Source: an uncultured Akkermansia sp. (GTDB lineage: Bacteria; Verrucomicrobiota; Verrucomicrobiia; Verrucomicrobiales; V1-33). Taken from it: a stretch of DNA of 64,000 bases. The notes beneath the pieces are model-generated. The model saw only the letters and a list, made by a program, of their open reading frames with translations, searched no databases and was not told the origin of the DNA. Numbering within the stretch: the first letter of the stretch is position 1; each line of letters begins with the position of its first letter. The DNA lies in contig CAZFZN010000018.1 of assembly GCA_964523105.1 (NCBI GenBank), positions 21,786 to 85,785 on the forward strand. The letters are read 5' to 3'. Of this stretch, positions 38,887-57,355 are shown in pieces. The position numbers and the translations under genes were made by a program.

Positions 38887-39660
38887 ATGGAACTCATCGC
38901 CTTTCAAATCGACATCGCATGGCATGATTTCGAGGCCAATCTCGCAGGGATCACTGCCCTGCTTGAAATTGCCCGCCCGGCTTCCGGCGCGCTGATCGTG
39001 CTGCCGGAAATGTGCCTCAGCGGATTCAGCCGGGAGGTTGCGGCCGCGACGGCGGGCTGCTCTGCGGGCGAAAGCGCCCTGGCAGGGCTGGCAAAAGCCC
39101 ATGGCGTCGCGATCATGGCCGGTTTGGCGGTTCCGGGGACGAACTGCGGCGCGAATGAATCCGTGACGTGGGGGCCTGACGGGCGCGAACTGGCGCGCTA
39201 CCGGAAATTGCAGCCCTTCTCGCTCGCAGGAGAGCAGGAAAATTACCCTGCCGGCGACCGGGTGGTGACCTTTCAATATGGCGGATTCACCATCGCGCCG
39301 TTCATCTGTTATGATCTGCGCTTTCCGGAACTCTTCCGCGCCGCGGCGGTCAAGGGTGCTGAACTGATCGCCGTAGTCGCGAACTGGCCGAACCAGCGTC
39401 AGCACCACTGGACCACGCTTCTCAAAGCCCGCGCCATCGAAAACCAGGCGGCGGTCATCGGAGTGAACCGGGCCGGCACCGATCCTGAATTCACCTACGA
39501 TGGCGGCAGTCTCATCCTCGGACCGCAGGCGGAAGTGCTGGCAGAGGCCGGCAGCGCGCCCGGTTTCATCCGTGCGGAGATCACTCCCGAACTCGTGCGC
39601 GAATGGCGCGACCGCTTTCCTGCACTGCGCGACCGCCGTTCCGACTACGCCCAGCTGTGA
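38887..39660 (+). CDS. Carbon-nitrogen hydrolase (nitrilase superfamily) protein
   Basis: Glu-Lys-Cys triad contexts 'LIVLPEMCLSGF', 'YRKLQPFS' and 'APFICYDLRFPELF'. The stop overlaps the NRPS start (TGATG at 39658-39662). Confidence 0.85.
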   Translation: MELIAFQIDIAWHDFEANLAGITALLEIARPASGALIVLPEMCLSGFSREVAAATAGCSAGESALAGLAKAHGVAIMAGLAVPGTNCGANESVTWGPDGRELARYRKLQPFSLAGEQENYPAGDRVVTFQYGGFTIAPFICYDLRFPELFRAAAVKGAELIAVVANWPNQRQHHWTTLLKARAIENQAAVIGVNRAGTDPEFTYDGGSLILGPQAEVLAEAGSAPGFIRAEITPELVREWRDRFPALRDRRSDYAQL

Positions 39661-42600
39661 TGCCTGCGAACCGGACAGACTCCTTTCCGCTGACGCCTCT
39701 GCAGCAGGGGATGCTCGCTCATGCCCTGCAGCATTCCGGGTCCGGCTGCGACGTCGAGCAAATGGTGTGCACGCTTCCCGAACGGGTGGATGCGGTCCGC
39801 TTGCGCGCCGCATGGGAGCGCGCAGCACGGCGCCATGCAGCGATGCGTCTTTCTTTCGACTGGCCCGCCGACGGGCCGCAGCAGTTCATCGCTGAGAACA
39901 TCACCCTGCCGTGGACGGAGCGCACCATACCGGCAGCGGAAATCCCGGCGTTCCTTCACGCGGACCGGTACACTGCATTCGATCCCGGCACCGCCCCGCT
40001 CATGCGCTTCGCTTTGCTGCGTGCCGCGGAGAACGACTATCGCCTTGTTTGGACTTTTCACCATCTGCTGCTCGACGGCCGCAGCATCGTTAAAGTGCTG
40101 CACGAAGTTTTCGCCGACTACGACGGGGCGGAACCAGCACCGGCTACAGCCGGAACAGAGGCCCTCGGGCGATATCTGGAATGGCAGGAATCGTCCGGGC
40201 ATGAGGCGTCCGGTGCCTTCTGGAAATCGCACCTCGCCGGCATCCACGGCCCCGGGCCTGTTGTCATCGGGAACCTCGGCGCGCTCACTCCGCAACCGGC
40301 GCAGGACGAAGCCGGCCACGTCCTCAGCGCTGCCTCCACGGCCGCGCTGGAGCGCCTGGCTGAAAATTCCAGCGTCACGCTCAACACCCTCGTCCAGGCC
40401 GCGTGGGCTCTGCTCATCAGCCGCTATACCGGCGAGGATGCGGTGATTTTTGGCGCCACTCGCGCCTGCCGTCACGTTCCGTTCGACGGAGCCCGCGACA
40501 TCACGGGCCTGCTCATCAACACCGTTCCTCTGGCCACCGTGATCGCCGGCGAGTCACCGCTCGTGCCCTGGCTGCAGTCTCTTCGCAAAGCGTGGCTCGA
40601 CCAGCGTCCTCATGAATTGACACCGCTGCCGCTCATCCGGCGCGCCGCAGGCCTGCCTCAGGACCAGCCGCTCTTCAATCACCTCGTCGTCTTTGAACAC
40701 GAGGACTTCACCGGGGCGCTCCATCGGCTGATGCCGGCGGCGCAGCACCGGCGCTTCGATCTTCGCGAACTCACCACCGTTCCGCTCACGCTCCAGGCCT
40801 ATGGCGGCGCCTGCCTGCGCCTGCGCTGCGCGTTCGATACGTCGCGTTTCGATCCTGACTTCATCCGGCGGATGCTGGGACACGTGGCGCACCTTCTGGC
40901 GCAGTTCACGCAGCAGCCGGACGCTACGCTCGACACCTTCACGCTCGCGACTCCGGAGGAATGTTCCGCCCTGCTCGCACAGCCGGTGAAGGAGTTTCCG
41001 TCCGGGATCACGATTCACGCATGGTTCTCAGAAATCGCTGCGCGCTTTCCGGATTACATGGCGGTCACCGGTTCGCACGGTGCGTGGACCTATCAGGAAC
41101 TGGATGCCCGCTCCAATGCCGTCTCCGCTGCGCTCATCAACGCCGGCACGCAGCGCGGAGATATCGTCGCCTTCCTCCTCGAACGCACCGGCCACATCCC
41201 CGCCGTCATCCTCGGCATCCTCAAAGCCGGAGCCGCCTATCTTCCCATTGATCCCGCCTGTCCCGTCGAGCGCGCCGCCTTCATGACCGCCGATTCCTGC
41301 GTCAAAGTCCTCCTCACCGACACCGCGCACGCCGCCAAAGTCCCCGCGGGCAAATTCGCTGTCATCAACTGCGACACTCTCCCCGACTCCGCCGCTGCGC
41401 CTGACATCTCAGCGCACAGCCCCGACGACACCGCCTACATCATCTTCACCAGCGGCAGTACCGGCCAGCCCAAGGGCTGTATGATCAGCCACCGCAACGT
41501 CGTCCGCCTCATGCGCGCCACCGAGCCCTGGTTTGCCTTCCATGACCGCGATGTCTGGACTCTTTTCCACAGCAGTGCTTTCGACTTCAGCGTCTGGGAA
41601 ATCTGGGGCGCGCTGCTCTACGGCGGACGCCTCGCCGTCGTGCCCTGGCTCACCACGCGCTCGCCCGAAGACTTCTGCCGCCTGCTTTGTCAGGAGGGTG
41701 TCACCGTGCTCAACCAAACCCCCAGCGCCTTCCGCCAGCTCATCGCTGCGGAATCTCTGGCGCGCAGCACTGATCCGTCTCTGCCGCCTTTTTCGCTGCG
41801 TTACGTCATCTTCGGCGGCGAGGCCCTGGAAATGCAAAGCCTGCGCCCCTGGTTCGAGCGCCACGGCGATCAACAGCCGCTCCTGGTGAACATGTACGGC
41901 ATCACCGAAACCACCGTCCACGTCACCTGTCGCCCCCTCTCCGCGGCCGACCTCACCAACGGCTCCGTCATCGGCGAGCCCATCCCCGACCTCCAACTCC
42001 ACGTCCTCGACCCGCGCAGCAAACAGCCCGCGCCTCTCGGCATCCCCGGCGAAATGTACATCGCCGGCGCCGGCCTCGCCAAAGGCTACCTCAACCGACC
42101 TGATCTGACGGCGGAGCGATTCCCGCAGTCGTGGCTTTCCACTCAGTCCACCCCGACTTCCCGCCTCTACAAAACCGGCGATCTCGCCCGCCGCCTTCCT
42201 AACGGCGACCTCGAATTCCTCGGCCGCATTGACGACCAGGTGAAAATCCGCGGCTTCCGCATCGAACTCGGCGAAATCGAAAGCGTTCTCTGCACCCACC
42301 CCGCCGTCCGTGAAGCCTGCGTCCTCGTGCGTGAGGACCGCCCCGGCGACAAACGCCTCTTCGCCTGGTTCGTCAGCGCCACGCCGCCCTCTGCCGCCGA
42401 ACTCCGCGAGCACCTGCGCACCCGCCTTCCGGATTACATGATCCCCGCGGCGTTCGTGCCCCTGAGCGCCTTCCCGCTCACCACCAACGGCAAGCTCGAC
42501 CGCCGCGCCCTGCCCGCGCCCGTCGTGGAAACCGCCGCGCGCACCTTCACCGCGCCATCCACGCCTAACGAGCACACCCTCGCCGCCATCTGGGCCAAAG

Positions 42601-55927: not shown

Positions 55928-56014
55928 AGACACGGGAGCGGTGGCCCGGCTGCTCCTGCTCTCCCGATGGAGCGGGCGTGACAAACCGGCGGCAGCGTGT
56001 AGGAGAGGCGGCCT

Positions 56015-57355
56015 ATGAAACTCACCTTCGTTTTTCTTCCACTCGCGTGCTCCGCCTTCGCTGCCATCGGCGCGCCCAACGCCGCCGGCACACTCCCGCA
56101 GAACGGACGCCTTGCTGTCGTGGGCGATTCCATCACCGAGCAAAAGCAATACTCGAAATTCATCGAAGCCTACATCGTCGCGTGCAGCGGGCGTTCGGAC
56201 GTGCGCGTGTTTCAGTTTGGCTGGAGCGGGGAGCGGGCGGATGGTTTTGCGGCGCGGGCGGCGAATGATCTCGCGGTGTTCCAGCCGACGACGGTGACTC
56301 TTTGCTACGGCATGAACGACGGGAGTTATCAGCCCTTCAATGACCAGATTGGCGGCGCGTACGAGAAGAACATGCGCCGGGTGCTGACGACGCTCAAGGA
56401 AATCGGCGTGAAGCATGTCGTGGTCGGCTCGCCGGGCGCGGTGGATACGTTTTTCTTCAAGCGCGACAACTTTGCGCCGAAGTCGGGCGCCGACGGCTAC
56501 AATGACAATCTGCGGCAGCTCGGCGGTATCGGAAAGAAACTCGCGGGAGAATTCGGTCAGCTGTTCGCGGACGTGCATCAGCCGATGATTGACGCGATGC
56601 TCAAGGCGAAGCCCGTGCTCGGCGAAAAGTACGACGTGTGCGGCGGCGACGGCTTCCATCCGAATGCGAACGGGCACCTCGTGATGGCGCAGGCGTTTCT
56701 CAAAGGTCTCGGCTGCGATGGCGACATCGGCACCATCACAGTGGACCTGAACGGAGCCGCACAGGCGACCGATGGCCACAAAGTCTTGAGCAGCGCGGCG
56801 GGTTCGGTGGAGTTGGAGAGCACGCGCTATCCGTTCTGTTTTCAGGGCGATGAGAAGTCGTCCGGCGGCACCCGGAGCATTGCGCCGTTCATTCCCTTCA
56901 ATGCGGAACTGAACCGACTCGTTCTCAAAGTGGCGAATCTGAACGAAGCGCAGGCAAAGGTGGAATGGGGCGGCCGGACGAAGAGATTCTCCAAAGAGCA
57001 ACTGGCGGCGGGCATCAATCTGGCGGCCGAGTTTGCCGGCGCGACGCCGTTCGATGCCGCCTTCGGTGAGTATCTGAACCGCGTGGGCCAGAAGCAAAAC
57101 TACGAGACCCTGCTCATCAAACAGCTCGTGACCAATTTCCGCCATTTCGGCGGCGTGGCGCAGGAGGACAAAGAGGTGGCGGCGGCATTCGAAACGCTGC
57201 GCGCGAAACTCGGAGCGCACCAGAAGGTGCTCGACGACAAGGCGCGTGAGGCCCTGCAGCCGGTGAAGCATTCCATCAAGGTTACGCCGCTGGGAGCGGC
57301 GGAGCTGGAGGCTGAAGCTCGATTTGGCAGGGAAATCGGAAAAGGGGAGAAGTGA
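56015..57355 (+). CDS. Secreted SGNH/GDSL-family hydrolase with extra C-terminal domain
   Basis: Signal peptide 'FLPLACSAFAAIGA'; block I 'LAVVGDSITEQ'; block III 'CYGMNDG'; block V 'GGDGFHPNANGH'. Confidence 0.82.
   Translation: MKLTFVFLPLACSAFAAIGAPNAAGTLPQNGRLAVVGDSITEQKQYSKFIEAYIVACSGRSDVRVFQFGWSGERADGFAARAANDLAVFQPTTVTLCYGMNDGSYQPFNDQIGGAYEKNMRRVLTTLKEIGVKHVVVGSPGAVDTFFFKRDNFAPKSGADGYNDNLRQLGGIGKKLAGEFGQLFADVHQPMIDAMLKAKPVLGEKYDVCGGDGFHPNANGHLVMAQAFLKGLGCDGDIGTITVDLNGAAQATDGHKVLSSAAGSVELESTRYPFCFQGDEKSSGGTRSIAPFIPFNAELNRLVLKVANLNEAQAKVEWGGRTKRFSKEQLAAGINLAAEFAGATPFDAAFGEYLNRVGQKQNYETLLIKQLVTNFRHFGGVAQEDKEVAAAFETLRAKLGAHQKVLDDKAREALQPVKHSIKVTPLGAAELEAEARFGREIGKGEK

Follow-up and report, generated by a model that had tools for sequence, protein, structure and literature searches.

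A compact hybrid synthase operon with an embedded aminotransferase in an uncultured verrucomicrobium: a predicted threonine-loading assembly line

Hybrid assembly lines of nonribosomal peptide synthetases (NRPS) and polyketide synthases (PKS) are known to carry built-in aminotransferases. In the MycA/iturin and McyE modules a non-reducing KS-AT-ACP unit is followed by an Aminotran_3 domain and then by a condensation (C) domain, and the beta-keto thioester is transaminated on the carrier. Yersiniabactin HMWP2 includes C/Cy-T modules lacking an adenylation (A) domain, and one A domain loads two carriers. The biotin route reaches a vicinal diamine by the BioF/BioA steps (7-keto-8-aminopelargonic to 7,8-diaminopelargonic acid): chain extension at an amino-acid carbonyl yields an alpha-amino ketone, from which a class III aminotransferase makes the diamine. 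Non-canonical C-fold domains between two carriers are described for AmbE-type A-T1-C*-T2 lines, CmodAA, interface domains and MxgE. To our knowledge, almost no natural products have been characterised from free-living Verrucomicrobia. Here we analyse 64,000 nt of DNA (the window) from an uncultured Akkermansia sp. (contig CAZFZN010000018.1, positions 21,786 to 85,785), where an operon at 38887-55927 of the window encodes a CN-hydrolase, an NRPS, a PKS-NRPS with an embedded aminotransferase (AMT) domain and a phosphopantetheinyl transferase (PPTase).

The original prediction, made from the sequence and a list of its open reading frames (ORFs), had placed here five genes on one strand, bounded by an AT-rich divergent region and a tRNA-Ala gene. 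All five plus-strand ORFs are present at those positions, and the GC profile and tRNA call confirm both boundaries (Table 1); the cluster had been drawn as far as 57355, whereas the conserved unit ends at 55927. The ORF list gives 2,108 codons for the NRPS and 3,070 for the PKS-NRPS; with the starts in Table 1 (ATG for the NRPS) the products are identical to deposited proteins P0122 and P0001, respectively. Since the CN-hydrolase and NRPS genes overlap by 1 nt (stop and start) and the PKS-NRPS and PPTase genes by 4 nt, we consider the four genes to form one translationally coupled operon. Its 17 kb are free of stops and frameshifts. The segment 38001-39000, which includes the divergent region, has a GC content of 0.58 (∼0.65 nearby). 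Two promoter-like (sigma-70-like) sites were found on the minus strand of the divergent region (0.3 expected), and an Rfam scan of the promoter region detected no riboswitch or leader RNA. Plasmid origin was considered and rejected, as PLSDB megablast gave short generic A-domain matches only, covering ≤5% of the query.

Domains were called with Pfam on the ORFs and then on sub-segments, with NCBIfam in addition. All Pfam calls are well above cut-off, and the domain order proposed earlier, including E and AMT, passed this profile-HMM check. In the NRPS, Condensation appears in four stretches (C1, E and a second C domain, C2*, split in two by an insertion) along with AMP-binding (3e-85) and two PP-binding domains. 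The E domain is a condensation fold with an HHxxxDG-type motif, located behind a GGDSI carrier; E-type motifs (EGHGRE/RTVGWFT/FNYLG type) were read in the homologous domain of relative P0003, not in the window's own E. The active-site Ser is present in all four carrier domains. NCBIfam added a GSA-aminomutase-like match for the AMT (4e-74, aa 1273-1664) and, for the PPTase, a best match to HetI under that model's cut-off; it gave no equivalog-level match to any named synthetase. As originally noted, KR, DH and ER are missing (these Pfam profiles have no match in the cluster proteins), and the class III AMT sits, as in MycA, between ACP and a C domain, here C3.

Table 1. Features of the operon and its surroundings (window coordinates; motifs and codes in brackets)
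Feature	Coordinates	Strand	Basis
EPS-export operon: EpsL-like/PEP-CTERM-associated outer-membrane protein, Poly_export, GNVR tyrosine-kinase-like, Bac_transf, two unknown ~460-aa proteins	30079-38631	-	
AT-rich divergent intergenic region between minus-strand EPS-export operon and cluster	38632-38886	none	
CN-hydrolase, 257 aa, omega-amidase-like	38887-39660	+	Pfam CN_hydrolase 3.9e-37
NRPS, 2089 aa, C1-A1(Thr, predicted)-T1-E-C2*-T2	39660-45929	+	Pfam, NCBIfam
C1, N-terminal condensation domain (HHLLLDG)	39678-40973	+	Pfam and motif
A1, adenylation domain (DFWNIGMVHK)	41028-42494	+	Stachelhaus code extraction
T1, carrier (GGDSI, form found ahead of E domains)	42576-42761	+	Pfam and motif
E, epimerisation domain (HHLAVDGVS)	42828-44093	+	Pfam Condensation 1.1e-56 on isolated segment
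C2*, condensation-fold domain, split by in-frame palindromic insertion at ~44634-44748	44184-45527	+	Pfam on segment
T2, carrier without own adenylation domain (GGGSL)	45624-45815	+	Pfam on segment and motif
PKS-NRPS, 3050 aa, KS-AT-ACP-AMT-C3-A2(Thr, predicted)-T3-TE	46074-55226	+	Pfam
KS (TACSTS Cys, HGTAT, KSNTGH)	46107-47219	+	Pfam ketoacyl-synt 5.5e-67
AT, malonyl-type (GHSIG aa 672, HAFH aa 770)	47715-48656	+	Pfam Acyl_transf_1 1.4e-55
ACP (LGFDSL), aa 1054-1120	49173-49373	+	Pfam PP-binding
AMT, class III pyridoxal-phosphate (PLP) aminotransferase (Lys in SYGKVIGGG)	49830-51005	+	Pfam Aminotran_3 1.2e-42, aa 1273-1591
C3, condensation domain (HHIVCDG), aa 1680-2171	51051-52526	+	Pfam Condensation 7e-68
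A2, adenylation domain (DFWNIGMVHK)	52584-54083	+	Pfam AMP-binding 1e-90
T3, carrier (GGTSL)	54174-54365	+	Pfam and motif
TE (GYSYG Ser; candidate Asp and His present)	54435-55154	+	Pfam Thioesterase 5e-18
PPTase, Sfp/HetI-type	55223-55927	+	Pfam AASDHPPT_N 1.1e-16 and ACPS 1.8e-15
Secreted SGNH/GDSL hydrolase, probably not a cluster member	56015-57355	+	Pfam GDSL 6e-15
tRNA-Ala(CGC), downstream landmark	57441-57516	+	
Palindromic inserts or inserts bounded by terminal inverted repeats, both synthase genes	44634-44748, 47379-47490, 48874-49143, 49415-49466, 51384-51578, 53703-53750		
CTGNNNNCCCTCCGGG hairpin copies	48944-48973 (+), 49044-49059 (-), 49125-49144 (-), 48875-48890 (+)		

The first A domain and the second gave the same Stachelhaus code, DFWNIGMVHK (the GrsA control returned DAWTIAAICK). 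This is an established Thr code, so both A1 and A2 are predicted to activate Thr, in agreement with the Thr-containing product proposed at the outset. The code is exactly conserved in the first A domain of 16 out of 19 full-length relatives; their last A domain is often Val-like. At the DNA level, stretches 41425-42520 of A1 and 52999-54109 of A2 are 75-82% identical, and the two A domains of relative P0007 are nearly identical; such likeness suggests intragenic duplication or gene conversion.

From what was observed (the order of the genes, the identity of their domains, the catalytic motifs and Thr codes, conservation and selection) we propose the following scheme, in which carrier loading, C2* activity, the amine donor, the role of the CN-hydrolase and the mode of release are the conditional parts. 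The PPTase would prime the four carrier domains. A1 would activate Thr and probably load T1 and the A-less T2 alike; C1 would add an acyl cap to the T1-bound Thr, E would epimerise this residue and C2* would move acyl-D-Thr onto T2. With malonate from the AT, the KS would then lengthen the Thr thioester. Because KR, DH and ER are absent, the beta-keto group should be kept, and the embedded AMT would turn it into an amine to give a 3,4-diamino-5-hydroxyhexanoyl unit. C3 would couple this unit to a second Thr, loaded by A2, and the TE would free a small product, linear or cyclised. The CN-hydrolase would destroy 2-oxoglutaramate, the by-product of transamination with glutamine as donor, and thus make the amination irreversible. 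With moderate confidence, which applies to this scheme as a whole, we regard the operon as a compact, apparently intact and self-contained cluster that encodes a functional Thr-loading assembly line.

The likely product is an N-capped (D-Thr)-[3,4-diamino-5-hydroxyhexanoyl]-Thr. The original prediction of a beta-amino acid holds for the beta-amination and fails for a simple beta-amino acid: as the KS is fed by the Thr carrier of the NRPS, its substrate would be an alpha-amino-acyl thioester, and malonate extension with transamination would therefore give a vicinal 3,4-diamine. The prediction of a vicinal diamine should hold however T2 obtains its Thr. That Thr is the residue extended and aminated is indicated by shorter relatives with A-T-KS-AT-ACP-AMT (P0006, P0015, P0018, P0056 and P0076), in which the A domain feeding the KS has a Thr or Thr-like code.

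The N-terminal C1 was earlier supposed to accept an acyl group or an upstream donor. It starts 7 residues past the start codon, with no carrier upstream, as expected from the position of a starter C domain. In relatives P0012 and P0023 a formyltransferase domain stands in place of C1; since these two variants carry such a domain instead, C1 is presumed to be an N-capping (starter) domain, which favours the acylating role.

The original prediction knew of no characterised pathway with this architecture in organisms of this type; as a design it is not rare, and many metagenomic lineages encode lines with the identical 14 domains. Homologs of the PKS-NRPS number in the thousands, and those closest to it (70-78% identity, ∼2,880 aa) share its eight domains. 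Among the best 120 matches, about 17 are single ∼4,900-aa proteins in which the full set of domains runs C-A-T-E-C-T-KS-AT-ACP-AMT-C-A-T-TE. Since the two synthases are fused in this order in P0003 and at least 15 other proteins, the domain order fixes the hand-over between the two window proteins: T2 is predicted to pass the chain to the KS. In species-representative genomes, scanning detected the same supermodule in Verrucomicrobiales (including a Prosthecobacter metagenome-assembled genome, MAG), Chthoniobacteraceae, Acidobacteriota, Pirellulaceae, a Bradyrhizobium MAG and other Proteobacteria; a Gemmatimonadaceae protein, P0051, has the full 14-domain line. The design is common in uncultured soil and water bacteria, and the 14-domain line recurs across several phyla, often as one protein. 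Across this wider family, no accessory gene other than one for a PPTase was found next to the megasynthase.

The CN-hydrolase has the fold and the triad (Glu41-Lys107-Cys141) of its family. Its best NCBIfam model is PRK10438 (named ‘amidohydrolase’ there), presumably the E. coli YafV family, followed by Nit1 and nitrilase models; the nearest solved structures are 3p8k and 2e11, and homologs with 65-78% identity carry the automated JGI name omega-amidase. The gene is located directly before the NRPS gene in five other loci: L001/L002 (66% identity), L003 (a fragment), L087 (78%), L088 (75%) and L089 (57%). Another homolog, with 53% identity, lies 6 nt downstream of a stand-alone class I/II aminotransferase gene. 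Beyond the close clade we found one candidate association only, a 33% homolog ∼6 kb from the synthase in L031, which we did not find convincing. The AMT of MycA uses Gln as amine donor (PMC3870968), and omega-amidase renders Gln transamination irreversible, its genes being often found in methionine-salvage operons (PMC6302742). For these two reasons we propose a ratchet role: by analogy, the CN-hydrolase is most likely an omega-amidase that pulls the on-line, Gln-dependent amination.

It is also conceivable, though unlikely, that the enzyme acts on the metabolite itself, either as an amidase removing the N-acyl(-D-Thr) cap in prodrug activation or self-resistance, or in making a precursor. Amidases and N-carbamoyl-D-amino-acid hydrolases are found among the CN-hydrolases, coupling of the gene to the NRPS is tight, and a C-A-T-E start module is a hallmark of N-acyl-D-Asn prodrug pathways. 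Known prodrug peptidases, however, are periplasmic S12 enzymes, and no hydrophobic signal-peptide-like N-terminus is apparent in the CN-hydrolase sequence; the A code is for Thr, not Asn. Moreover, the best family matches belong to the YafV/XC1258-like and Nit branches, the close homologs are named omega-amidase, and the wider family manages without a CN-hydrolase gene. We therefore retain the omega-amidase as the preferred role.

C2* is the sole domain of the line without an intact catalytic motif: C1, E and C3 keep HHxxxDG, whereas C2* reads PDLHLDG (44577-44597) and thus departs from a canonical C domain. In the alignment, its LPDLHLDGWS (44574-44603) corresponds to HHHIILDGWS of McyB. The domain that the original prediction marked C* thus has a condensation fold without the catalytic His, yet it is conserved and under selection. 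The motif PDL[HQ][LM]DG defines a clade of at least nine sequences (the PD clade: the window, P0003, P0007, P0123, P0124, P0161, L003, L088 and L089) and is held down to ∼45% identity over the domain. In 16 other full-length relatives C2 has HHH, and most relatives read THHHLQIDGWS behind the E domain, the position of an ordinary C domain that takes a D-configured donor. C2* is not diverging faster than its neighbours (identity to P0003: 56% for C2*, 58% for C1 and 53% for C3). The dN/dS values are 0.15-0.28 for C2*, 0.22-0.24 for C1 and 0.20 for E, indicating purifying selection on every NRPS domain. Low dN/dS, divergence as in the neighbouring domains and few clade-specific substitutions together argue that C2* is retained for a function. 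Compensating residues were sought in the PD clade; just eight columns are clade-specific, and none holds a new His.

Two special classes of C domain were considered for this position. At the place of the CmodAA signature [K/R]SVLLAAH, C2* has FVQAAWALLLSH, and the stretch matching the CmodAA helix before motif C5 is GAFVQAAWALLLSH; by the helix motif and clade membership that define CmodAA (PMC11342130), C2* falls outside this class. Its scores agree (4e-16 with the AmbE CmodAA, 7r9x, vs 7e-49 with McyB C). The HHHxxxDG of the relatives' C2 was tried as a nocardicin-type beta-lactam or dehydroamino-acid signature and rejected, as ordinary post-E C domains (McyB) also read HHHIILDGWS and the CmodAA helix is absent. 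On the most economical reading, C2* would transfer the chain to Thr on T2 via a non-canonical active site.

Should C2* instead be dead for condensation, A1 would only load T2, the line would make uncapped 3,4-diamino-5-hydroxyhexanoyl-Thr, and C1, T1 and E would be vestigial or regulatory. The replaced catalytic His speaks for this version, and the shorter natural A(Thr)-T-KS-AT-ACP-AMT-C-A-T-TE lines such as P0006 would yield just such a product. A dead step, however, should free the upstream domains from constraint, while HHxxxDG is intact in C1 and E of every PD-clade member and C1, E and C2* are all constrained. Opinions differ on the role of the second His itself, and C-like domains that lack His can be essential (PMC13638107). 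We judge an inactive C2* to be rather improbable, somewhat more so than a CN-hydrolase acting on the metabolite, and keep to the active, non-canonical C2*.

In a wider perspective, the family might represent a widespread, so far uncharacterised assembly-line route to vicinal diamines (an amino-acid thioester, here of Thr, malonate and on-carrier transamination), to which one Verrucomicrobia lineage would have added a His-free PDxxxDG C domain and a dedicated omega-amidase driving Gln-dependent amination. We offer this generalisation tentatively and consider it well short of an even chance. If true, the C domain would belong to a new subtype, and the omega-amidase would be an accessory enzyme of a kind new to PKS aminotransferase domains.

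Upstream of the cluster, on the opposite strand, lies an exopolysaccharide (EPS) export operon. The same head-to-head arrangement with the synthase operon was found in L001, L084, L087, L088 and L089 (L084 without the CN-hydrolase) and is kept down to 57% CN-hydrolase identity; in L085 a PEP-CTERM protein is encoded close by. Shared ancestry or shared regulation may account for the arrangement. One could suppose from it that the cluster is tied to EPS export, through a surface or biofilm lipopeptide or a shared regulator, and is not a free-standing, antibiotic-type cluster. We see little chance of this: the loci are all Verrucomicrobia-like and may simply share ancestry, L003 and L086 are without EPS neighbours on their visible sides, and no enzyme joins peptide and sugar.

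On the downstream side, the SGNH hydrolase had been counted as a cluster gene. It has a signal-peptide-like N-terminus, the solved structures nearest to it in sequence are those of GDSL lipolytic enzymes and acetyl-xylan esterases, and it is absent downstream of the PPTase gene in L001, L002 and L003. Given this absence from syntenic loci and the signal peptide, we left it out of the cluster, to which it is probably unrelated. Elsewhere in the window, genes for PSCyt1/PSCyt2/PSD1, DUF1501 and sulfatase proteins, hallmarks of the Planctomycetes-Verrucomicrobia-Chlamydiae (PVC) superphylum, are located at 21831-28143; they support a host of Verrucomicrobia/Planctomycetes type, as do the relatives of the cluster from Verrucomicrobiales. 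An ORF at 11437-21807 (plus strand) encodes a giant surface protein of 3,456 aa with Big_9/cadherin-like repeats and lamin-tail (LTD), CotH kinase-like and beta-helix regions; a similar LTD-CotH giant protein is encoded near a CN-hydrolase homolog in L090.

Both synthase genes carry palindromic inserts. Compared with homologs of 72-84% identity, the PKS-NRPS has in-frame insertions at aa 462-484, 975-1032, 1791-1855 and 2564-2579; the first element recurs inside C2* (34 aa), the two copies being 85-89% identical. The C3 insert (51384-51578) adds ∼65 aa in the hairpin ahead of the His motif. The inserts are the strongest inverted repeats of the window, and for two of them the predicted folding is much stronger than in shuffled controls (z = -6.6 and -6.3). 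The insert before the ACP (48874-49143) consists of four nested inverted copies of the hairpin motif CTGNNNNCCCTCCGGG, which in a local scan had a sub-threshold match to Rfam Acido-Lenti-1 (29 bits vs the gathering score of 37; E = 8e-5). The match hints that Acido-Lenti-1, an orphan RNA motif, may form one module of a mobile element repeated in PVC/Acidobacteria genomes. Proteins P0009, P0014 and P0002 of other Verrucomicrobiales have in-frame inserts of their own elsewhere, with translated-palindrome signatures such as ARPVPAL...GTGLATG; in P0009 an insert of ∼100 aa is inside the AT domain and another inside an A domain. The window inserts fall in linkers or loops, at places where homologs already differ in length. 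They look like small mobile palindromic elements, similar to miniature inverted-repeat transposable elements (MITE) or repetitive extragenic palindromes (REP), tolerated in linkers and loops of the synthases, and may be compared with Rickettsia palindromic elements. Decay or loss of function of the cluster in this genome, through the five in-frame insertions (34 aa in C2* and ∼65 aa beside the C3 active site among them) and the His-less C2*, is very improbable, as the 17 kb have no stops or frameshifts, all other catalytic motifs are intact, every NRPS domain is under purifying selection and the inserts are confined to linkers and loops of variable length.

The following points weigh against the proposed assembly line. 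The scheme rests on sequence, and its product is a predicted one. The assignment of an A domain to T2 is a proposal from the architecture. Among solved structures, the best relatives of C1 are McyB C (6e-63) and PvdL C (2e-52), with weaker matches to 8f7f (3e-36) and 7c1h (2e-13), which we take to be the starter C domains of surfactin synthetase and RzmA; by these scores C1 resembles D-clade C domains more than solved starter C domains. Both histidines of HHxxxDG are absent in C2*, and the five in-frame insertions, inside C2* and just before the C3 His motif in particular, might impair the enzymes. The CN-hydrolase scores 162 bits against the PRK10438 cut-off of 249, below the level of an equivalog. 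Two of three contexts of ‘housekeeping’ CN-hydrolase homologs have no aminotransferase neighbour, and the neighbours are unrelated. The gene is absent from more distant family members that have the same AMT, so the chemistry does not require it, and any role of it would be an add-on; its adjacency to the NRPS could be mere inherited synteny of one lineage.

Among known systems, the closest are the MycA/McyE-type modules, in which membership of the window line is partial. The KS Cys-His-His, malonyl AT, ACP Ser and AMT Lys are all present and KR/DH/ER are absent, as in these modules; the fatty-acyl loading region is missing. In MycA-type lines a fatty-acyl-AMP ligase and ACP prime the KS, whereas here the KS is preceded by C2*-T2, ligase and loading ACP are absent from the cluster and a Thr-bearing NRPS carrier is the predicted donor; accordingly different are the products, a beta-amino fatty acid there and a predicted 3,4-diamine here. 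The line is also much smaller, with two A domains and an operon-encoded CN-hydrolase. HMWP2 is similar in its A-T-...-C-T layout, the second carrier having no A domain of its own; unlike HMWP2, the window NRPS has an intervening E domain and a C domain without catalytic His, and double loading by A1 is a proposal.

The AmbE-type and related domains likewise put a non-canonical C fold, kept here by selection, between two carriers. C2* differs from them in having no CmodAA signature and in its nearest solved relatives, which are ordinary D-clade C domains (McyB and PvdL); its change from His to Pro-Asp arose within a clade whose other members keep HHH. The ‘ketoglutaramate ratchet’ of methionine salvage (PMC6302742) likewise encodes a Nit/omega-amidase-type CN-hydrolase beside a transaminase function; in the window the transaminase is a domain of a megasynthase, and action of the CN-hydrolase on 2-oxoglutaramate is the supposed part of the parallel. 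BioF and BioA, in contrast to the predicted carrier-bound route, are free enzymes with free substrates, and close homology does not go beyond the PLP fold class. With the ClbN/ClbP-type N-acyl-D-Asn prodrug start the cluster shares C-A-T-E; its code is for Thr and an S12 peptidase is absent among its genes. Flavipulchrin (starter C, then PKS-AMT) and myxoglucamide (atypical C domains) are partial analogies only.

In our literature search, which covered the domain string, Verrucomicrobia NRPS-PKS products and amino-acid-primed AMT modules, none of the characterised pathways had this architecture. Given that the 14-domain design occurs in Acidobacteria, Gemmatimonadota, Planctomycetota and Proteobacteria, one solved product would annotate a large family, and the 17-kb cluster apparently needs no further genes. 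It raises the general questions of chain transfer by a C domain without His, of the loading of A-less carriers and of omega-amidases recruited to drive on-line transamination. Current understanding is not overturned, since in its basic logic the line follows known NRPS-PKS hybrids; a peptide/polyketide assembly line that includes its own aminotransferase is a familiar type.

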